Below, piece by piece: positions 52,456-61,842 of a DNA stretch of 61,842 bases. A model generated the notes under the pieces. The model was given only the letters and a program-made list of their open reading frames with translations. It was not told the DNA's origin and searched no databases. The first letter of the stretch is position 1; each line of letters opens with the position of its first letter. Source of the DNA: Actinomycetes bacterium (GTDB lineage: Bacteria > Actinomycetota > Acidimicrobiia > Acidimicrobiales > Microtrichaceae); contig JAUXGW010000001.1 of NCBI GenBank assembly GCA_030621865.1, forward strand, positions 1 to 61,842, in the 5' to 3' direction. The translations under genes and the position numbers were made by a program.

Positions 52456-54453
52456 ATGTCTCAGGGCGCTGATAGGTTCGCCACGATGAGCGGCATGGAT
52501 CAAGACCCCGGCGGCGATTCGCCATCCAGACTCCTGACCGGACTCAACGAAGCCCAGCGGGAGGCGGTCACCTCGGACTCCGATCCGCTGCGGATCCTGG
52601 CTGGCGCCGGATCCGGGAAGACCCGCGTGCTGACTCAGCGGATCGCCTGGCGGGCTGCCAACGGGGCGGAGGATCCCAACAAGGTTCTCGCAGTGACATT
52701 CACGCGCAAGGCTGCCTCCGAACTCAGGGATCGGCTCTGGAAACTCGGGCTGAGCGAGGGCGTTCGGGCTGGAACCTTCCACGCCATCGCCCATGCACAA
52801 CTTCGTCAACGCTGGGAAGAACGCGGTGTGCAACCCGCGGAGTTGCTGGAACGAAAGTACACCTTCGTTTCGCGACTCATGAGGACACGTAGTTCCACAC
52901 TTCCCCTCGACGTGATCGGTGAGATCGAGTGGGCTGCCGCTCGAATGATCACACCCGAGGATTACGAGAACGCGGCCGAACGCGCCCAGCGAACTCCTCC
53001 GATGGACCTGTCGAAGGTGGCGGCGACATATGAGCAATACCAGCAGGCAAAACTCAAGAAGCGCCTGGTGGACTTCGATGACATACTCCGCCTCGCTGCC
53101 CGTGACCTCATGGGCGATCCTGTCTACGCGAGTGCACGGCGCTGGCGATACCGCCACCTCTATGTCGACGAATTCCAGGACGTGAACCCACTTCAGCATC
53201 ACCTCCTGAGTCTCTGGATGGGCACCGAGTCCACGTTCTGCGCCGTCGGGGATCCCAATCAGGCGATCTACGCCTGGAACGGAGCCAACTCCGACTATCT
53301 CGTGAACTTCGAGAAGCACTTCGGAGGCTCAGCGACTGTTGAACTCACCAGGAACTACCGCTCCACCCCCGAGATACTGACTGCCGCAAACGCGGTGCTC
53401 GCCGGCTCCCCGGCCACACCATTTCGTCTTTCCGCCACCCGTCCATCCGGGCCGGCAGCCGAGATCCGGTCCCACGCCGACGAAGTCGCCGAAGCAAAGG
53501 CGATCGCTCGTGCCTGCAGAGTCAAACACCGACCCAACACCGCGTGGCGCGCCCAGGCAGTGTTGGTTCGCACCAACTCCCAGTCAGCTGCGATCGCCGA
53601 GGCGCTGTCGGATGCCGGAATCCCCCACCGCGTTCGAGGTTCGGCCTCCCTCCTGCAACAACCCGAGGTCAAGGACGCGCTCCGGACCCTGCACCAGAGT
53701 CCGGCCGTTTCCTCCTTCATCAAGGACACCGAAGCAGTGATTCTGGATCCCACCCCGGAACTCACCGAGGACCGTCTGGCCAATCTCGCCGAACTGATCA
53801 GACTCGCCAACGAATTCCTGACGATGGAGCCGGAAGGATCACCCGAGAACTTCTCCCGCTGGCTCACCGCCGCTCTGCGCAACGATGACGGCATGGGTGG
53901 TGACGCCGTGGAAGTCACCACCTTTCACGCAGCCAAGGGTCTTGAGTGGTCAATTGTCCACGTTGCGGGACTCGAGAACGGCCTTGTCCCGATTCATCAC
54001 GCCAAAGACGATCCGGACGCCATCGAGGAGGAACGTCGACTGCTCTACGTGGCACTCACCCGCGCCCGGGATGAGTTGAGTTGCACGTGGGCACGGAAAC
54101 GCACTTTCGGCACCCGGGCACTGAAACGCTCCCCATCACCGTGGCTCTCCGCCATCAAAGGGGTTGGCGAATCAGCCGAAGAGCCATCAGGTCGGCCCCG
54201 GAGGCGGACCAGAACTGCTGCGACCACACCTGCTGGATCGGAGCTGTTCCAATCCCTGCGGGCCTGGCGCATGAAACGGGCTCAAGCCGCCGACGTACCG
54301 GCCTTCGTGATCCTCAACGACGCCACGCTCCATGCCCTTGTCGAAACCAGGCCCCGGAAGCAGATCGATCTTCTCGACGTGGCCGGGATCGGACCGGTCA
54401 AAGCCGATCGATTCGGTGCGGAGATCCTCAACATCATCAAAGAAGCCGAGTGA
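52456..54453 (+). CDS. UvrD/PcrA-family helicase with a C-terminal HRDC domain (UvrD2-like)
   Basis: 'LAGAGSGKTRVL', 'VDEFQDVNP', 'NYRS', 'T.H.AKGLEW..V', 'EEERRLLYVALTRA'. C-terminal 'LRAWR...A....VPAFVILND.TL..L....P......L..V.GIG..K...FG' HRDC. Confidence 0.88.
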   Translation: MSQGADRFATMSGMDQDPGGDSPSRLLTGLNEAQREAVTSDSDPLRILAGAGSGKTRVLTQRIAWRAANGAEDPNKVLAVTFTRKAASELRDRLWKLGLSEGVRAGTFHAIAHAQLRQRWEERGVQPAELLERKYTFVSRLMRTRSSTLPLDVIGEIEWAAARMITPEDYENAAERAQRTPPMDLSKVAATYEQYQQAKLKKRLVDFDDILRLAARDLMGDPVYASARRWRYRHLYVDEFQDVNPLQHHLLSLWMGTESTFCAVGDPNQAIYAWNGANSDYLVNFEKHFGGSATVELTRNYRSTPEILTAANAVLAGSPATPFRLSATRPSGPAAEIRSHADEVAEAKAIARACRVKHRPNTAWRAQAVLVRTNSQSAAIAEALSDAGIPHRVRGSASLLQQPEVKDALRTLHQSPAVSSFIKDTEAVILDPTPELTEDRLANLAELIRLANEFLTMEPEGSPENFSRWLTAALRNDDGMGGDAVEVTTFHAAKGLEWSIVHVAGLENGLVPIHHAKDDPDAIEEERRLLYVALTRARDELSCTWARKRTFGTRALKRSPSPWLSAIKGVGESAEEPSGRPRRRTRTAATTPAGSELFQSLRAWRMKRAQAADVPAFVILNDATLHALVETRPRKQIDLLDVAGIGPVKADRFGAEILNIIKEAE

Positions 54454-54471
54454 ATCAAAGAAGCTGGATGA
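54436..54471. repeat. 18-nt tandem copy (15/18) of the helicase 3' end plus stop, forming the entire convergent intergenic gap
   Basis: atcaaagaagccgagtga (54436-54453) and atcaaagaagctggatga (54454-54471). The second TGA is in frame. Confidence 0.85.
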
Positions 54472-55224
54472 TCACGTGTCACGCTGCTCCAGCATGTGAG
54501 CGAATCCACCTTCACGGAACGCCACGAACAACGCCTGGGACGTCACACAAATACGATCACCGTGACGGAGTTCGGCGCTCGCCCAGATCTTCCGGCCATC
54601 CCGGGACTTCAGCCAGCCACGCATGTCCAGTCGTTCCCCCAGAGGAGTCGGACTCTTGTAGTCAACGTCGATGTGCGCAGTCATCCCCTGGGTTCCGGAC
54701 AGGGACTGGGTAGCACCAAGCAGCTCGTCGAGAACAGCTGCCACATACCCACCATGGACAAATCCGGGAGGCCCTTCGTAGGCCGGGCCGAACGTGACGT
54801 GACCCAGAATCTGCTCGTCATTGTCCGGATCGTGGCGCATCGCCAGCGGCGGGGACAGTGGATTTGCCAACCCGATCATCGGACTGTGATCGAAGAAGGC
54901 CAGCCGCTCCGGATCAATCGCCATGGCGGCTCCGGCGTTGGCCGCCTCGGCGAAACCTTCATAGGTTGCTCCAGCGGGAAACTCCGCGAACTGCCTTGCC
55001 AGCGCCTCCAGTTCATCGGCGGCTTCAGTGAGCTGCTCCACCTCGGCCGATGTGTTGACGAGGTGAGTGATGATCTCGCGGATTGCCGCTGCCAGCCGGC
55101 GGGACTCGCCACGCCTGGGTGTGAGCTCCAGGCGCTCGAAGCCCTCGATCCGAGAACTCCGTGGAGCATCTGATTCTGTTTCCTCCGGGTTCGTCCCGTT
55201 CTGCGGGTTCGAGTTGCTGCTCAC
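54472..55224 (-). CDS. PaaI-family hot-dog thioesterase with an N-terminal extension
   Basis: 'GFVHGGYVAAVLDELLG' hot-dog core. GTGA overlap with xthA. Confidence 0.7.
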   Translation of the reverse strand: MSSNSNPQNGTNPEETESDAPRSSRIEGFERLELTPRRGESRRLAAAIREIITHLVNTSAEVEQLTEAADELEALARQFAEFPAGATYEGFAEAANAGAAMAIDPERLAFFDHSPMIGLANPLSPPLAMRHDPDNDEQILGHVTFGPAYEGPPGFVHGGYVAAVLDELLGATQSLSGTQGMTAHIDVDYKSPTPLGERLDMRGWLKSRDGRKIWASAELRHGDRICVTSQALFVAFREGGFAHMLEQRDT

Positions 55225-56015
55225 TTGTTCTCCTCACTCGGGCCAACCTCATAGACGGCCATGACCGGCGCGTGGTCCGAAGGTTTCTTGCCTTTTCTGG
55301 CGTTGCGGTCGATCAGGTCAGCAGTGCATGTCGAAGCCAACGGAGCTGACGAGAGCAGGAAATCGATCCGCATGCCGCGACGTTTGTGGAAGTCGCCGTT
55401 GCGGTAATCCCAGTAGCTGTAGATGCCGGGCTCCGGGAATCGGTCGCGGAGGGTATCGATGAGACCCCAGTCCTTGACGTGATCGAGAGCGTCGCGCTCC
55501 GGCTTGCTCACATGCGTCATTTCCTGGAAGTGAGCGGTGCTCCAGACATCGTCATCGGCAGGTGCAATGTTCCAGTCTCCAAGCACGACCAACTGCTCGT
55601 CGGGCGAATGGTTCCTGTCGAGATGTGAACGAAGCCGGTGTAACCAATCCAGTTTGTAGCGGTAGTGATCGTGGCCGAGTTCACGGCCGTTGGGTACGTA
55701 CACGGATGCAACCCGGATCCCTCCACACGTGGCCCAGACCACTCTCGCGTCAGGATCGGGTTCGCCGCCGTCGTCGAATCCCCTGACCTCATCCTCCAGG
55801 CCCACCTTGGAGAGAATCGCCACACCATTCCAGCGACCTTCCCCATGGTGAACAGACTCGTAACCGAGGGCAGTGAAGGCCATCGTCGGAAACTTCTCAT
55901 CTGAAAGTTTCGTTTCCTGCATGCACAACACGTCCGGCGACACGGCCTCCAGCCATTCGGTGACTCTCGGCATCCGGGCGTTGAGTGAGTTGACGTTCCA
56001 TGTGGCGACCAGCAC
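55221..56015 (-). CDS. xthA: Exodeoxyribonuclease III
   Basis: 'VATWNVNSLNAR', 'DVLCMQETK', 'GDWNIAP', 'RIDF.L.S', 'SDHAPV'. GTG 56015 verified. Confidence 0.92.
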   Translation of the reverse strand: MLVATWNVNSLNARMPRVTEWLEAVSPDVLCMQETKLSDEKFPTMAFTALGYESVHHGEGRWNGVAILSKVGLEDEVRGFDDGGEPDPDARVVWATCGGIRVASVYVPNGRELGHDHYRYKLDWLHRLRSHLDRNHSPDEQLVVLGDWNIAPADDDVWSTAHFQEMTHVSKPERDALDHVKDWGLIDTLRDRFPEPGIYSYWDYRNGDFHKRRGMRIDFLLSSAPLASTCTADLIDRNARKGKKPSDHAPVMAVYEVGPSEENK

Positions 56016-56080
56016 GTTCAGAAATCTAGCTCTGTTGCCTTTGAGAGGGCCGACCACACCAAGTCGGTAGGATCCACTGG

Positions 56081-59000
56081 GTGACCGACACCACATCTCC
56101 CAAGCCGGACGCACACCGCTCACAGCAGGAAGTCGGCCAGAACCAATGGCTGGTTGACGAGGTCTACGAGCGTTATCTGGCGGACCCGGCGTCGGTCAGC
56201 GTGAGTTGGCAGGAATTCTTCGACGGCTACCAGCCACCGGGCCGCCACGGTGCCCGTTCCACCCAGGCGCCACCGGAGGCCGAAACACCATCGGCGGCCG
56301 GACCAGAACCATTCAAGGAGTCCCAGAAGCCAGTCGACTCCCAGGAGGAAGAAGGCGAACCAATCCGGGGTGTTGGCGCTCGGATCGTGGCAAACATGGA
56401 AGCCAGCCTCGAAGTGCCCACGGCCACTTCCTACCGTGAGGTGCCGGCAAAACTGCTGGAGATCAACCGCAAGGTCATCAACGGGTATCTGGGACGCACC
56501 CGCGGCGGCAAGGTCAGCTTCACCCACTTGATCGGCTACGCACTCGTCACGGCACTCAGCGAGAGCGTTCCGTCACTCAACAACTCCTACGTTGAGGGAG
56601 CAGATGGCAAACCGCGCATCATCCGCAACAGCCATGTCGGTCTGGGCCTCGCGATCGACATGGAGAAGCCAGACGGCTCCAGGACGTTGCTGGTTCCGGT
56701 GATCAGGGACGCCGACACACTCGACTTCGCAGAATTCGTCGCCGCCTACGACGAGATGATCCGCAAGGCCAAGCGCAACAAGCTCGGGATCGACGACTTC
56801 AGCGGCGGCACGGTAACCCTCACCAACCCGGGAACGATCGGGACCGAACGATCGGTTCCGCGACTCATGCCGGGGCAGGGTGTGATCATCGGAGTGGGCA
56901 GTCTCGGTTACCCGACCGCTTTTGCCGGAGCGGATCCCCACACCCTCGCCGACCTCGGCGTGTCCAAGGTGATGACGATTTCGTCCACCTATGACCACCG
57001 GATAATTCAGGGCGCCGAATCGGGGCTGCTCCTCAAGAAACTCCATGACCTGCTGCTCGGCGACGACGAGTTCTACGACGAGATCTTCGCCGCTCTGGGC
57101 GTTCCGTACGAGGCGGTCATGTGGCGCCGCGATGTACACGCCGGCGACAGGGAGGACACCCAGGTCGCCAAGCAGATGCAGGTCTCCACGCTGATCAACA
57201 TGCACCGAGTGCGCGGCCATCTGATCGCCGACCTGGATCCGCTGTCAGCCCAGCCACCCGAAATGCACCCGGAGCTGGATCCCGCAACCTACGGCCTGAC
57301 CATCTGGGACCTGGATCGCGAGTTCCTGACCGGCGGTGAAGTGGGCATCTACGCCCCCGTTGGAGGTGTGACCCGTCAGGCACTCGGCGATCTGTTGCAC
57401 GTACTCCGCGATGCCTACTGCCGCACCGTGGGCATCGAATACATGCACATTCAGGAGCCAGAGGAGAAACGCTGGATCCAGGAACACGTCGAAGGCACAC
57501 CGATACGACTGACCAACGAAGACCAACGCCACATCCTGTCGATGCTCAACGGGGCCGAAGCCCTCGAGAAGTTCCTCGGCACCAAGTACCTGGGCCAGAA
57601 GCGATTCGGGCTCGAGGGTGCCGAGTCGCTGGTACCGATGCTTGACGCTCTACTCGAGGAAGCCGCCGACGATCATCTGGACTCAGCCGTGCTGGGCATG
57701 CCACACCGTGGTCGACTCAACGTGCTCGTCAACATCATCGGCAAGAAGTACAGCCAACTCTTCAGGGAGTTCGAAGGATACGTGGACCCGGAATCCATTC
57801 AGGGTTCAGGCGACGTCAAGTATCACCTCGGCCAGGAAGGCACATTCACCTCCCGCTCCGGTGCTGAACTGCCAGTTGAACTGGCTGCGAACCCATCACA
57901 TCTCGAAGCGGTCGGTCCCGTGGTGGAGGGAATCACCAGAGCTCGCATGGACCTGATTCCGAGCGACCCTGAGCGCAGGTTTCCGGTGCTGCCGGTACTC
58001 ATGCACGGTGACGCGGCGTTCGCGGGCCAGGGGGTGGTCGCAGAAACGCTCGCCATGTCCGACATCAAGGGATATCGCGTGGGTGGCACGGTCCACTTGA
58101 TCGTGAACAACCAGTTGGGCTTCACCACTCCGCCGGAATCGGCACGTTCCTCCGAATATTGCACGGACATCGCCAAGGGAGTTCAGGCACCCATATTCCA
58201 TGTGAACGGTGATGACCCAGAGGCCTGCGTCCGAGTCGCCCGCCTCGCCTATGCGTACCGCCAGCGATTCCACAAGGACGTGGTGATCGACATGGTTTGT
58301 TATCGCCGCCAGGGCCACAACGAAGGCGACGATCCCAGTTACACCCAGCCGGTCATGTATCGCACCATCGAAGCGAAGCGCCGCGTTCGCCAGACCTATG
58401 TGGAGAATCTGGTACGCAGGGGCGACATCAACCTTTCCGAAGCAGAGACTGCGCTCACCGACTTCCGCGAGCAATTGCAGACCGCTCTGGATGAGACCCG
58501 CGAAGCTGCACCCGAAGAAGACATCGTCGCCGCCCCGCATCCCCCCAACGTGGGTGTGCTGTCGCACATCGACACGGGTGTCACTCGTCCGGAACTGGAT
58601 CGTATCTTCGAAGTCATCGAGGGTGTCCCCGAAGACTTCACGATCCATCCCAAACTGGAGAAGCAGTTCAAGACCAGAAACGCCATGTACAACAGCGGCG
58701 AAATCGACTGGTCTCTGGCGGAGAACCTGGCCCTGGGCTCACTTCTCGCCGAAGGCACATCGGCTCGAGTAGCCGGCCAGGACACTCGGCGAGGCACTTT
58801 CTCCCACCGCCATTCCGCACTGTTCGACTACGTCAACGGCAAGGAGTTCACTCCCCTGTGTGGATTCACGAATGAGGAGACTCACCTGTGGATCTACGAC
58901 TCCCTGCTGTCGGAATATGCGGCGCTGGGGTTCGAGTACGGCTACTCGGTTGAGAATCAGGATGCACTGGTGATCTGGGAAGCTCAGTTCGGCGACTTCG

Positions 59001-59737
59001 CCAACGGAGCCCAGATCGTGATCGACCAATTCATCGTGGCTGCAGAGGACAAGTGGAAGCAGACTTCGGGCCTTGTCATGTTGTTGCCCCACGGTTTCGA
59101 GGGACAAGGACCGGAACACTCATCTGCACGACTGGAGCGATTCCTCACGCTCAGCGCCGAAGACAACATCCAGGTCTGCCAACCGACCACCCCGGCACAG
59201 TACTTCCATCTGCTGCGCCGGCAGGTCAACCGCAGCATCCGCAAACCTCTGGTGATTGCGACTCCCAAATCCGGGCTGCGCGACAAGCGATGGAAGTCGA
59301 GTGTGACGGACCTCGAAACCGGATCTTTCGAAGAGGTACTACCCGATCGGTCCGGACTGGACGCAGATTCGGTCACCCGGGTGGTTCTCGCCAGCGGAAA
59401 GATCGCCGTGGAGGCGATCACCAAACGCGACGCCCTGGGATTGAACATCCCGGTGATCCGCGTGGAGCAGCTCTACCCGTGGCCGGTTGACGCTCTGCGG
59501 GTCGAGCTGGCCAGGTTCGCGAATCTGGCAGAAGTGGTCTGGCTCCAGGAGGAGCCGAAGAACATGGGCGCGTGGAACTCCTCGAAGGGATATCTCTACG
59601 ACAACTTCGGAGACGATCTTGTGGTCCGCCGGGCCGGTCGCCCCGACGAAGGTTCTCCTGCCACGGGCAGCCATGCGATCCACGTGCAGGAACAGGAAAT
59701 GATTCTGGACGCCGCGTTCGCTCCACTGGAGGACTGA
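56081..59737 (+). CDS. kgd: Multifunctional 2-oxoglutarate dehydrogenase/decarboxylase E1 with an N-terminal E2-like acyltransferase domain (Kgd/OdhA type)
   Basis: 1218 aa. 'NQWLVDEVYERYL', an E2 catalytic-type 'SSTYDHRIIQGAESG', then E1o 'GMPHRGRLNVL', 'HGDAAFAGQGVV', 'NNQ.GFTT', 'LLPHGFEGQGPEHSSARLERFL'. Confidence 0.96.
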   Translation: MTDTTSPKPDAHRSQQEVGQNQWLVDEVYERYLADPASVSVSWQEFFDGYQPPGRHGARSTQAPPEAETPSAAGPEPFKESQKPVDSQEEEGEPIRGVGARIVANMEASLEVPTATSYREVPAKLLEINRKVINGYLGRTRGGKVSFTHLIGYALVTALSESVPSLNNSYVEGADGKPRIIRNSHVGLGLAIDMEKPDGSRTLLVPVIRDADTLDFAEFVAAYDEMIRKAKRNKLGIDDFSGGTVTLTNPGTIGTERSVPRLMPGQGVIIGVGSLGYPTAFAGADPHTLADLGVSKVMTISSTYDHRIIQGAESGLLLKKLHDLLLGDDEFYDEIFAALGVPYEAVMWRRDVHAGDREDTQVAKQMQVSTLINMHRVRGHLIADLDPLSAQPPEMHPELDPATYGLTIWDLDREFLTGGEVGIYAPVGGVTRQALGDLLHVLRDAYCRTVGIEYMHIQEPEEKRWIQEHVEGTPIRLTNEDQRHILSMLNGAEALEKFLGTKYLGQKRFGLEGAESLVPMLDALLEEAADDHLDSAVLGMPHRGRLNVLVNIIGKKYSQLFREFEGYVDPESIQGSGDVKYHLGQEGTFTSRSGAELPVELAANPSHLEAVGPVVEGITRARMDLIPSDPERRFPVLPVLMHGDAAFAGQGVVAETLAMSDIKGYRVGGTVHLIVNNQLGFTTPPESARSSEYCTDIAKGVQAPIFHVNGDDPEACVRVARLAYAYRQRFHKDVVIDMVCYRRQGHNEGDDPSYTQPVMYRTIEAKRRVRQTYVENLVRRGDINLSEAETALTDFREQLQTALDETREAAPEEDIVAAPHPPNVGVLSHIDTGVTRPELDRIFEVIEGVPEDFTIHPKLEKQFKTRNAMYNSGEIDWSLAENLALGSLLAEGTSARVAGQDTRRGTFSHRHSALFDYVNGKEFTPLCGFTNEETHLWIYDSLLSEYAALGFEYGYSVENQDALVIWEAQFGDFANGAQIVIDQFIVAAEDKWKQTSGLVMLLPHGFEGQGPEHSSARLERFLTLSAEDNIQVCQPTTPAQYFHLLRRQVNRSIRKPLVIATPKSGLRDKRWKSSVTDLETGSFEEVLPDRSGLDADSVTRVVLASGKIAVEAITKRDALGLNIPVIRVEQLYPWPVDALRVELARFANLAEVVWLQEEPKNMGAWNSSKGYLYDNFGDDLVVRRAGRPDEGSPATGSHAIHVQEQEMILDAAFAPLED

Positions 59738-59784
59738 CTCGGCAACAACCAGTTCCGGACACAGCGCCCGACCGCGCCGTCAGG

Positions 59785-60447
59785 TCAGCCATCCAGTGGT
59801 ATCCCCGTGATCTCCTCCAACTCGGCCAGGGCAACTGAGGGATCCACGACCTTGATGGTGTGCATACCCATTTCGCGTGCCGGTTTGAGGTTCACACCCA
59901 GGTCATCCAGGAACACCGATTGCCGCGGATCCACTCCGAGTTCGGTGATCGCGATCTCGTAGAACCGTCGCTCGGGTTTGCGCACTCCGACCACCGAGGA
60001 CTCGACAACCACGTCGAACAATCCCAGGAGATCACCGAAGCTCCCACCGCTCGACCAATCGGGATTACCCGATACGAAGTTGTTGGTGAGCAGGGCAATC
60101 TTGTGCGAGTCCTTCAGAGCCTCGATGGCATTCACCATCGCCGGCCGAAGCTCACCTTGCAGACAGCCAAGCACCTCCGCACCGGACAATTCGTGGCCGG
60201 CCAACGCCGCCTCCGCCTCGAACAGCTCCGCGAACTCCGCCAACCCGACGTCGGATCGCTCCAGCTGTGCCCAGGCGTTCGTATCCGGATTCGTGGCATT
60301 GATGGAGCGGATCGCGCCGTGCGGCAAACCCCTGCGAACCTCCAGATCATTGAAGGCATCAAAGGGGCTGCTGAGGATCACTCCACCGAAATCGAACAGG
60401 ACCGCGTTGGTTTCCACCAGAGAATCGTAAAGGAGTCCGCCATCCAC
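59785..60447 (-). CDS. HAD-superfamily hydrolase (subfamily IA)
   Basis: 'VLFDFGGVIL' motif I, 'LTNN' motif II, 'FLDDLG.N' motif III. Confidence 0.8.
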   Translation of the reverse strand: MDGGLLYDSLVETNAVLFDFGGVILSSPFDAFNDLEVRRGLPHGAIRSINATNPDTNAWAQLERSDVGLAEFAELFEAEAALAGHELSGAEVLGCLQGELRPAMVNAIEALKDSHKIALLTNNFVSGNPDWSSGGSFGDLLGLFDVVVESSVVGVRKPERRFYEIAITELGVDPRQSVFLDDLGVNLKPAREMGMHTIKVVDPSVALAELEEITGIPLDG

Positions 60448-60477
60448 CCTCCGCGAGGTGATTCACTTGAGTCCGAG

Positions 60478-61842
60478 ATGGACACTTCTCACCTGGTCGT
60501 AGACGGATCAAACATCGCCACTGAAGGGCGGTCCACCCCATCACTCGCGCAATTGAACGAGTCGGTCACGCAGTTCCTTGGCGAGGAACACTTCGACAAT
60601 GTGGTCGTGGTGGTGGATGCCAGCTTCCCCAATCGCATTGCAGATTCGGAGAAGGGGGAATTCGAAGAAGCGATCGTGGCGGGCGAGATTCTCACTCCTC
60701 CGGCAGGAACAATCGGGCGCGGTGACGCATTCGTGTTGACCATCGCCGAACGTTCCGGGGCCACGGTGCTGTCCAATGATTCGTTCCAGGAGTTCCACGG
60801 CGAACACCCCTGGTTGTTCGACGAGGGACGACTGATCGGCGGCAAGCCAGTTCCCGGAATCGGATGGGTGTTCACCGGCCGCATGCCGGTGAGGGGACCC
60901 AAGAGCAAACGGGCGGTTCGTGAGGCGAACGGCACTGACGGCCGGAAAAAGGCGAGCCCCGCCAAGAAAGTACCGGCAAAGAAGACACCGGCAAAGAAGA
61001 AGAGTTCCACCAAGAAGAAATCGTCCAGGAGCGAAGGTGCGAAGAAGTCGGCCGGGAAGTCACCGGCCAGGAGCGAAGAGGCCAAGGGGACTCCCTCCAG
61101 CAAGGGCCGACAGGGGCAGAAGAAGCAGGAGCGCAGGGCAACGAGTCAGCGCACGGGACCTGAGCCGACCAACAGTCCTGAAGCCTTCCTGGCGTTCATC
61201 TCCACTCACCAACCGGGCGCAGAGATCGACGGCGAAGTAGTGGAGTTCGCCTCACACGGCGCCTATGTGATGGCCGAGAGCACCCGCTGCTACGTGCCGT
61301 TGAAACTTCTCGGCTCACCACCTCCCCGCAGCGCGAAAGACGTGCTCACGATGGGTGAGGTGCGCCAATTTGTTGTGCAGGAATATGACCAACCTCGACG
61401 AGGTGTTGTTCTCCTGCCGACCGGGGTCGGACCATCCGATACCCATACCCGACAATCCGTGCCTTCTGACCAATCGGTCGGCGGCTCAGGTGTCGGATCC
61501 GACAACCACCCCGCCGAGGAGGCATCAGTGGCTACCAAGAAGAAAGCTCCAGCAAAGAAGAAGGCACCAGCCAAGAAGAAGGCAACCGCCAAGAAGGCAA
61601 CAACCAAGAAAGCCCCGGCAAAGAAAGCACCAGCCAAGAAGAAGGCAACCGCCAAGAAAGCCACCACCAAGAAAGCCCCGGCAAAGAAGGCACCCGCCAA
61701 GAAGAAGGCACCCGCCAAGAAGAAGGCAACGGCCAAAAAGGCAGCCACCAAGAAAGCACCCGCCAAGAAAGCACCAGCCAAGAAGAAGGCAACCGCCAAG
61801 AAGAAGGCCCCGGCAAAGAAGGCACCCGCCAAGAAGGCCCCG
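60478..61842 (+). CDS. Multidomain protein: Zc3h12a/Regnase-like NYN ribonuclease, Lys-rich linker, S1/OB domain and (A/P/T)AKK histone-H1-like tail. The 3' end is cut by the window
   Basis: Hand translation from ATG 60478 is open for 455 codons to the window edge, so there is no stop and it is absent from the track. 'HLVVDGSNIA', 'VVVVVDAS', 'GRGDAFVLTIAERSGATVLSNDSFQEF', 'LFDEGRLIGG'. 'GAEIDGEVVEFASHGAYVMAE...MGEVRQFVVQEYD'. Then AKKKAPAKKKATAKK... repeats. Confidence 0.8.
   Translation, partial: MDTSHLVVDGSNIATEGRSTPSLAQLNESVTQFLGEEHFDNVVVVVDASFPNRIADSEKGEFEEAIVAGEILTPPAGTIGRGDAFVLTIAERSGATVLSNDSFQEFHGEHPWLFDEGRLIGGKPVPGIGWVFTGRMPVRGPKSKRAVREANGTDGRKKASPAKKVPAKKTPAKKKSSTKKKSSRSEGAKKSAGKSPARSEEAKGTPSSKGRQGQKKQERRATSQRTGPEPTNSPEAFLAFISTHQPGAEIDGEVVEFASHGAYVMAESTRCYVPLKLLGSPPPRSAKDVLTMGEVRQFVVQEYDQPRRGVVLLPTGVGPSDTHTRQSVPSDQSVGGSGVGSDNHPAEEASVATKKKAPAKKKAPAKKKATAKKATTKKAPAKKAPAKKKATAKKATTKKAPAKKAPAKKKAPAKKKATAKKAATKKAPAKKAPAKKKATAKKKAPAKKAPAKKAP
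61531..61842. repeat. Coding tandem repeats: about 63-nt higher-order units built from 12/15-nt gcn-ccn-gcc-aag-aag(-aag) subunits
   Basis: 61564-61626 and 61627-61689 are near-identical 63-mers (APAKKKATAKKATTKKAPAKK). The pattern continues to the window end. Confidence 0.85.

Follow-up and report, generated by a model that had tools for sequence, protein, structure and literature searches.

We analyzed a stretch of 61,842 nucleotides (nt) from an Acidimicrobiia bacterium of the family Microtrichaceae (contig JAUXGW010000001.1, assembly GCA_030621865.1; hereafter the window) and focused on the gene that runs off its right edge. Translation of positions 60478-61842 on the plus strand yielded 455 codons without a stop, open to the last base, thereby bearing out the original prediction of an open reading frame (ORF) starting at ATG 60478. 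The encoded protein consists of an NYN nuclease domain, a basic linker, an S1 domain, a second linker and a lysine-repeat tail, and is referred to here as the NYN-S1 protein. The window ends before the true C-terminus is reached; complete close relatives measure 384-493 amino acids (aa). The ORF list over this stretch contains only other-frame and antisense ORFs, e.g., 60489-61103 (-) and 61290-61832 (-), because ORF listing omits frames that run off the window end.

The gene model is supported by its relatives. In alignments, ATG 60478 corresponds to the N-terminus of more than 100 homologues, which begin MxxSHLVVDGSN, and the order of parts given above is common to 121 aligned homologues. 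That the 60478 ORF arose by chance, by chimerism or through a frameshift is therefore ruled out. All of the motifs first read from the sequence, i.e., VVDGSNIA, VVVVVDAS, GRGDAFVLTIAERSGATVLSNDSFQEF, LFDEGRLIGG, the S1-like stretch and the (A/P/T)AKK repeats, were found in the translation. The right-edge ORF is thus confirmed as a real gene. In what follows, residue conservation refers to the 121-sequence alignment (~50% overall identity), counts of linker and tail patterns to 134 homologues whose S1 end could be placed, and counts of loci to 80 related loci (L001-L080), the best 80 of at least 584 genome stretches. The features of the gene are as follows.

60478 to 60945, plus strand: Zc3h12a/Regnase-type NYN (PIN-like) nuclease domain, residues 1-156 (PF11977, AlphaFold2, Foldseek, NYN-only profile)
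60502 to 60513, plus strand: codons of D9-G-S-N12, equivalent to Regnase-1 D141 and N144 (invariant, n = 121; HMMER alignment to VIDGSNVA of ZC3H12A)
60616 to 60618, plus strand: codon of D47, just past strand beta-2, where Regnase-1 has Pro (invariant, n = 121; aligned to the P of VFVPSW)
60721 to 60726, plus strand: codons of G82-D83, equivalent to Regnase-1 D225-D226 (invariant, n = 121; HMMER)
60772 to 60792, plus strand: codons of S99-N100-D101-S-F-Q-E105, equivalent to Regnase-1 S242-N243-D244 and D248 (invariant, n = 121; aligned to VSNDTYRDL)
60946 to 61161, plus strand: linker 1, disordered and Lys/Ser/Arg-rich, approximately residues 157-228 (model confidence, composition)
61162 to 61425, plus strand: S1-type OB-fold RNA-binding domain with an N-terminal capping helix, residues 229-316 (PF00575, profile, Foldseek, AlphaFold2)
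61426 to 61533, plus strand: linker 2, residues 317-352, net charge -4 (model confidence below 50)
61513 to 61533, plus strand: acidic motif AEEASVA at the end of linker 2, residues 346-352 (AEEAxVA consensus in two alignments)
61534 to 61842, plus strand: (A/P/T)AKK lysine-repeat tail, residues 353-455, ending at the window edge (composition, tandem repeats)

Domains and predicted active site of the NYN-S1 protein

In a Pfam scan, residues 5-111 matched PF11977 (RNase_Zc3h12a) with 34.4 bits against a gathering cut-off of 23, and homologues of the NYN-S1 protein also scored above this cut-off. A family profile of the NYN domain only, searched against the PDB, retrieved KHNYN (E = 1.3e-5) and ZC3H12A (E = 6e-5). 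The AlphaFold2 model, built from the 121-sequence alignment, consists of two domains of high confidence with a disordered basic linker between them. The first of these, residues 1-156, has a predicted local distance difference test (pLDDT) score of ~96 and is closed by a C-terminal beta-hairpin (119-134) and helix (141-156). When compared with the PDB by Foldseek, it matched ZC3H12C (7ndj), MCPIP1 (3v34, 3v33 and 5h9v) and ZC3H12B (6sjd) with target-normalised template-modelling (TM) scores of 0.60-0.67, the Foldseek probability being 1.00 for 7ndj, 3v34, 6sjd and 5h9v. The predicted structure hence agrees with the PIN-NYN structures of ZC3H12A, B and C, and the motif-to-motif alignment of the first ~135 residues with the Regnase-1/MCPIP1 core, as proposed in the original prediction, was reproduced by HMMER. 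PRORP (5diz, 4g23) was the next-best fold match (E ~2e-5 to 4e-5) and has been placed in the same structural group as RNase_Zc3h12a (Matelska et al., PMC5499597). Unlike PRORP, the NYN-S1 protein has no pentatricopeptide repeat (PPR) or zinc-binding domains and no PF16953 match, and nothing links it to tRNA 5' processing.

The same Pfam scan gave no match at E <= 1 to the LabA-type NYN (PF01936) or NYN_YacP/Rae1 (PF05991) families and none to the PIN toxin family VapC (PF01850). Of the three families named at the outset, PF11977 and PF00575 (S1) were thus found above their cut-offs, whereas PF01936 was not.

Regnase-1/MCPIP1 (ZC3H12A), ZC3H12B-D, KHNYN and N4BP1 share with the NYN-S1 protein the NYN/PIN-like fold and an above-cut-off match to PF11977. 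The likeness to Regnase-1 extends to the DGSN, D and SND...D/E motifs, in which D141, N144, D226, S242, D244 and D248 all have equivalents, and the two also have a design in common, namely a nuclease combined with a separate RNA-binding module (CCCH or KH in the Regnase/KHNYN group, S1 here). In contrast to that group, the NYN-S1 protein is bacterial and lacks a CCCH zinc finger as well as KH, UBA or CUE-like domains. Sequence identity is only ~20-24%; the protein has Gly in place of Regnase D225 and a new invariant D47, carries additional S1 and lysine-repeat segments, and continues after the core with a beta-hairpin and helix where Regnase has its zinc finger. The NYN-S1 protein is therefore a member of the RNase_Zc3h12a domain family, but, since it has neither a CCCH finger nor a D225 equivalent, it is not a Regnase orthologue.

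Candidate catalytic residues were mapped by HMMER alignment to ZC3H12A (3v32), using the published list of sites D141, D225, D226, D244 and D248 (PMC5499597). Four of these five acids are retained, i.e., D9 (D141), D83 (D226), D101 (D244) and, as Glu, E105 (D248). Together with N12, D47, G82 and the rest of S99-N100-D101, they are invariant in the 121 homologues. In the AlphaFold2 model D47 follows strand 41-45. In canonical PIN domains, strand beta-2 is followed at its end by an acid, and on this ground D47 probably takes over the role of Regnase D225. The view that the acidic positions D..N, D and SND had been kept thus holds for D9, N12, D83 and S99-N100-D101; it needs the qualification that the D225 position has become Gly and that VVVVVDAS carries the family-specific D47.

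The second confident domain is of the S1 type. PF00575 matched residues 244-312 (24.8 bits versus a cut-off of 22; Pfam scan), and a profile of the NYN-plus-S1 family matched E. coli ribosomal protein S1 (bS1) with E = 1.5e-12. Residues 234-314 were modelled with a pLDDT of ~97, with five strands of an oligonucleotide/oligosaccharide-binding (OB) fold lying within residues 249-314. By Foldseek, the domain superposed on an S1 domain of M. tuberculosis RpsA (4nni) with a root-mean-square deviation of 1.3 A over 81 columns, and S1 domains of RNase II and PNPase were also among the fold matches. An S1/OB fold following a Lys/Ser-rich linker, as first read from the sequence, is hence upheld by family, profile and structure matches alike. 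H260-G261-A262-Y263-V264 aligns with the nucleic-acid-binding Y-G-A-F-V of E. coli bS1 on the beta2-beta3 face; S259, H260 and G261 are invariant, and Y263 is nearly so. C271, within this domain, is the sole Cys in 455 residues. S1 domains, as a rule, bind RNA. RNase E/G, RNase II/R and PNPase follow a common logic in which a nuclease is combined with an S1 OB fold that captures single-stranded RNA, but their catalytic domains (DNase I-like/RNase H-like, RNB and PH, respectively) are unrelated to NYN.

The remainder of the protein is predicted to be largely disordered. Residues 147-228, spanning linker 1, are rich in K, S, A and R with a net charge of +21, the pLDDT is below 50 over residues 168-220, and both sequence and length of this linker differ between homologues. 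The tail comprises 103 residues within the window (46 K, 35 A, 12 P and 10 T; net charge +46), in keeping with the earlier estimate of at least 100 aa of (A/P/T)AKK repeats. At least 20 K/R residues follow the S1 domain in 118 of the 134 homologues, while tail length varies widely. The DNA encoding the tail is built from tandem repeats whose periods (15, 18, 63 and 81 nt) are each divisible by 3, so that gain or loss of repeat units preserves the frame.

Resemblance of the tail to histone H1, which had been proposed at the outset, stood as a matter of composition and failed as a family assignment. Weak compositional matches were obtained to HrdB, mycobacterial uL22, PF07382 and NF038053, but PF07382 (HC2) reached only 32.5 bits against a cut-off of 40 in the Pfam scan, and the NCBIfam H1-like models NF038053 and NF038052 reached 43.5 and 11.2 against cut-offs of 80 and 135. 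Because all scores lie under the family cut-offs, the likeness to H1 and Hc2 is, judged by sequence, one of convergent low-complexity composition and not of homology. Composition of the (A/P)AKK type is likewise shared with the tails of TopA, HupS/HupB, FtsK, Ku and HrdB, with chlamydial Hc2 and with the Burkholderia H1-like proteins; here, in contrast, the repeat is joined to a predicted RNase. By analogy with such proteins, (A/P)AKK-type repeats probably confer non-specific affinity for nucleic acids. Lysine repeats are over-represented in actinobacterial, including Streptomyces, DNA-binding proteins (TopA, HupS, FtsK, Ku and HrdB), and those of actinobacterial TopA stabilise nucleic-acid complexes and raise the processivity of topoisomerase I (PMC5714199).

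As a separate observation, the acidic motif at the end of linker 2 directly precedes the polycationic tail, and the strict pattern AEEAxVA occurs in 59 of the 134 sequences. It is kept in many members while the flanking linker varies, and could be a short linear interaction motif.

Distribution and genomic neighbourhood

A word-indexed protein search returned 6,724 proteins at E <= 1e-3, most of which have the same Pfam combination and a length of 375-530 aa; the best match was 59% identical. An exhaustive HMMER search with the NYN domain alone yielded 829 clusters (50% identity) with E <= 1e-3, 294 of them reaching E <= 1e-30. Identity within the NYN domain is 59-74% among the best 150 of the 829 clusters, and this high identity across clusters argues for strong purifying selection. 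Species-representative genomes contained at least 584 matching stretches. A survey of taxonomic distribution, as the original prediction had suggested, placed the best 80 of these entirely in Acidimicrobiia-type genomes, i.e., Microthrixaceae (closest, 61%), Iamiaceae, Acidimicrobiaceae and others. The copy in the window is a new orthologue, with at most 61% identity to anything among the matches listed, and is cut off by the end of its contig.

The NYN-S1-lysine tail architecture is thus real and conserved, and is already abundant and named in databases. RefSeq and JGI entries carry names such as "S1 RNA-binding domain-containing protein," "histone H1-like repetitive region-containing protein" and "Zc3h12a-like Ribonuclease NYN domain/S1 RNA binding domain," and a full-length orthologue of 471 aa is present in a cultured species, Actinomarinicola tropica (WP_153758908.1 / A0A5Q2RLR8). 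The PIN-superfamily catalogue of Matelska et al. (2017) also includes a bacterial RNase_Zc3h12a group, annotated "Unknown function in bacteria" (PMC5499597). The A. tropica protein, the "S1 RNA-binding" proteins of metagenome-assembled genomes (MAGs) and the bacterial group of Matelska share family, architecture and syntenic neighbours with the protein studied here; identity to these database relatives is 50-61% over NYN plus S1, with no substantive difference. The initial opinion that the architecture had not been characterised held for experiments, no paper having been found, but databases list it in many copies.

The window is chromosomal core, encoding IspG, RseP, Ffh, SMC, RecG, PEPCK, UvrD, Xth and a KGD-type 2-oxoglutarate dehydrogenase. 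When named neighbours were located by targeted tblastn in the 80 loci, two gene arrangements emerged. In the first, to which the window belongs, the order is UvrD(+), Xth(-), KGD(+), HAD or M20(-), NYN-S1(+), EttA(+), CysC/CysN(-); in the second it is EttA(-), KGD(+), HAD or M20(-), NYN-S1(+), Xth(+), UvrD(-). The KGD gene lies upstream of NYN-S1 in 64 of the 80 loci. In about half of the loci ettA is directly downstream, and in the closest relatives with the window arrangement it starts 67-113 nt past the NYN-S1 stop; by synteny with these relatives, ettA is expected just past the window edge. The EttA neighbour, a ribosome-binding ABC-F factor, matched TIGR03719 with 925 bits. Rfam and tRNA scans of the whole window gave no matches.

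Three further observations concern the neighbouring genes. The two arrangements swap EttA and Xth-UvrD between sides, with the breakpoint at the 3' end of the NYN-S1 gene; in the window the block spans 52456-60447. The gene at 56081-59737 (+) encodes a 1218-aa 2-oxoglutarate dehydrogenase in which an E2 acyltransferase is fused before E1, i.e., the actinobacterial Kgd/OdhA-type fusion. Finally, a divergent gene for an HAD-family phosphatase (TIGR02247) occupies 59785-60447 (-), its start ~30 bp from the NYN-S1 ATG (10-40 bp in relatives). Because only ~30 bp separate the two starts, the HAD and NYN-S1 promoters must overlap each other or adjoining coding sequence.

Proposed function of the NYN-S1 protein

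We consider it reasonably likely that the NYN-S1 protein is a housekeeping divalent-metal (Mg2+)-dependent endoribonuclease that its S1 and polycationic segments would anchor to RNA, to ribosomes or to the nucleoid. An NYN site composed of D9, D47, D83, D101 and E105, supported by N12 and S99, would cleave RNA, rather than DNA, while the S1 OB fold would hold single-stranded RNA beside the cleavage site. Linker 1 (+21) and the tail (at least +46) would add strong non-specific affinity for polyanions, which would hold the enzyme at its substrate or enrich it at ribosomes, in RNA-rich bodies or at the nucleoid. The role of the tail might be comparable to that of the lysine repeats of actinobacterial TopA on DNA (PMC5714199). 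Tethering to the nucleoid or to ribosomes, as proposed in the original prediction, is plausible. Domain identities, fold, residue conservation, spread and core-genome setting are results of the present analysis, whereas catalysis, RNA as the substrate, the part played by D47 and the cellular target are proposals.

Several points weigh against this interpretation. Regnase D225 has become an invariant Gly, G82, in all 121 sequences, and the placement of D47 in the active site is inferred from its conservation and strand position. Lysine repeats are enriched in Streptomyces DNA-binding proteins, and the neighbours Xth and UvrD function in DNA repair. The gene order may mirror only vertical inheritance within one class. 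The matches listed, i.e., the best 120-150 per search, were all members of the family, and the distribution within Acidimicrobiia is stated for these. Lastly, we found no experimental, biochemical or genetic work on any NYN-S1 member in the literature.

Four alternatives were considered. The first is a nuclease tethered to the nucleoid whose substrates would be DNA-associated, e.g., R-loops, RNA primers, flaps or nascent transcripts, with the tail bound to chromosomal DNA and the OB fold to single-stranded DNA or RNA. In its favor are the FEN-type 5' nucleases within the PIN-like superfamily (PMC5499597), the over-representation of lysine repeats in the actinobacterial DNA-binding proteins named above, and the presence of exodeoxyribonuclease III (Xth) and a UvrD/HRDC helicase near NYN-S1 in both arrangements. 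All characterised Zc3h12a-type and NYN enzymes, however, are RNases (PMC5499597, PMC11346440). The closest structures to the S1 domain, moreover, are ribosomal S1 domains, of a kind that typically binds RNA; EttA, the other neighbour often seen, is a translation factor; ribosomal proteins such as mycobacterial uL22 bear similar tails; and gene order shared within one class says little about function. We regard this first alternative as unlikely.

A second alternative is a ribosome-associated mRNA surveillance nuclease, which its S1 domain and tail would dock on the ribosome or rRNA and which would cut mRNA during translation. Rae1/YacP provides the precedent, in that a citation in PMC11346440 describes it as a bacterial NYN endoribonuclease with ribosome-dependent mRNA cleavage. 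The B. subtilis protein (PF05991) is a plausible functional analogue in ribosome-linked mRNA decay; it differs in belonging to another NYN subfamily and in being single-domain, with neither S1 nor a polycationic tail. The ribosome-binding EttA, directly downstream in about half of the loci and expected past the window edge, and an S1 domain closest to ribosomal protein S1 would also fit such a role. On the other hand, there is no match to NYN_YacP at E <= 1, and EttA adjacency is lost in the second arrangement, where Xth stands instead. This explanation, which we find improbable as a specific assignment, is in effect a special case of the tethered endoribonuclease favored here.

We think it very unlikely that the protein is a non-catalytic RNA- or nucleoid-binding protein, with a structural or chaperone function, in which the NYN fold serves as a binding module. 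Such a protein would be consistent with the replacement of D225 by Gly in every member and with the more than 40% of the protein that is polycationic disordered sequence; the number of active-site residues across RNase_Zc3h12a ranges from 0 to 5, and inactive members exist (Matelska et al., PMC5499597). Against this stand four of the five acids as well as N12 and S99, invariant in 121 sequences, and the likewise invariant D47, whose place, the C-terminal end of strand beta-2, also holds an acid in canonical PIN domains. Invariant acids together with D47 form the pattern expected of a live active site. Although many bacterial PIN-like/NYN proteins are toxins or CRISPR/defence accessory nucleases (PMC5499597, PMC11346440), a PIN-like toxin, anti-phage defence or mobile-element nuclease is hardly credible here, as none of the defence-protein families in PADLOC-DB was matched at E <= 0.01, neither phages nor plasmids yielded a homologue, no small antitoxin-like partner gene was seen among the neighbours, and the gene sits, highly conserved and apparently vertically inherited, in a syntenic core block (KGD, HAD or M20, EttA or Xth) across the class.

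To our knowledge, work on RNA decay in Actinomycetota has dealt with RNase E, RNase J and PNPase and has been confined almost wholly to Mycobacterium, Streptomyces and Corynebacterium, and we know of essentially no RNA-biology work on Acidimicrobiia. Soil, freshwater, marine and wastewater communities harbour these bacteria in abundance. A predicted nuclease that is strongly conserved across the class with an intact predicted site would be a reasonable starting point in the search for a lineage-specific RNA-processing enzyme, and the NYN-S1 family would offer a bacterial system for a Regnase-type NYN mechanism without a zinc finger. As a class-wide candidate RNase with a slightly rewired Regnase-type site, it is a good experimental target, even though the architecture will be no surprise to specialists who have looked at Pfam architectures. 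A more far-reaching view, which we put forward as speculative and of rather low probability, is that a major Acidimicrobiia endoribonuclease has so far gone unrecognised. It would be of the Regnase type with a rewired acidic site (D47 for D225), be concentrated on ribosomes, the nucleoid or RNA-rich condensates by S1 and lysine repeats, perhaps be under dedicated or autoregulatory control through TGCTTGACT 16 nt before the start, and perhaps rank among the closest prokaryotic relatives of the eukaryotic Regnase/KHNYN nucleases.

Upstream element and effects of the repeat array

A conserved element precedes the gene.

60459 to 60467, plus strand: conserved element TGATTCACT, consensus TG[C/G]TT[G/C]ACT, the hexamer within it beginning 16 nt before the ATG

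The hexamer lies 16 +/- 1 nt before the start in 48 of the 80 loci and 14-24 nt before it in 50, compared with ~0.11 loci expected from background frequency; loci with the element include L001-L005, L009, L019, L023, L029 and L030. No Shine-Dalgarno sequence is visible between TGATTCACT and the ATG, and a scan of 60150-60560 for sigma-70 promoters and terminators found nothing. Conserved RNA structure was not detected around the start codon and element (RNAalifold -0.16 kcal/mol with 3 trivial pairs; single-sequence fold z-score 0.36). Reading TTGACT as a -35 box was rejected by inference, as it would place the -10 box within codons 3-4 and leave the invariant N-terminus unencoded. The element may instead be an extended -10-like promoter element for a near-leaderless transcript, or an operator in a very short divergent intergenic region.

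The lysine-repeat array breaks assemblies of NYN-S1 loci. Like the window itself, related contigs L001, L005-L008, L011, L015, L019, L021, L030 and L042 end inside the tail; the array contains runs of N in L009 and L037, and the tail is frame-shifted in L023, L027, L044, L052 and L061. Apparent fusions of NYN-S1 to Xth (L037 and L052) and to EttA (L009) were considered as possible Rosetta-stone evidence and rejected as assembly artefacts, because their junctions hold N runs or frame-shifted AKK repeat (PPRRHRP..., LRRARRPQP...). Contig ends, N gaps and frameshifts in the lysine-repeat coding region thus give rise to false fusion proteins and truncated gene models in MAG databases.

Three MAG records further carry Acidimicrobiia-type NYN-S1 genes under unexpected titles, i.e., "Bifidobacterium breve" for L008 (CAMDLX010000080.1) and L040 (CAMAQM010000013.1) and "Acidobacteria bacterium" for L033 (JAGWYK010000012.1). 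The complete block, Xth, KGD, HAD or M20 and NYN-S1, is seen in L008 and L033 (plus EttA in L033), and L040 shows KGD, HAD and EttA. The organism labels of these three records are probably wrong.

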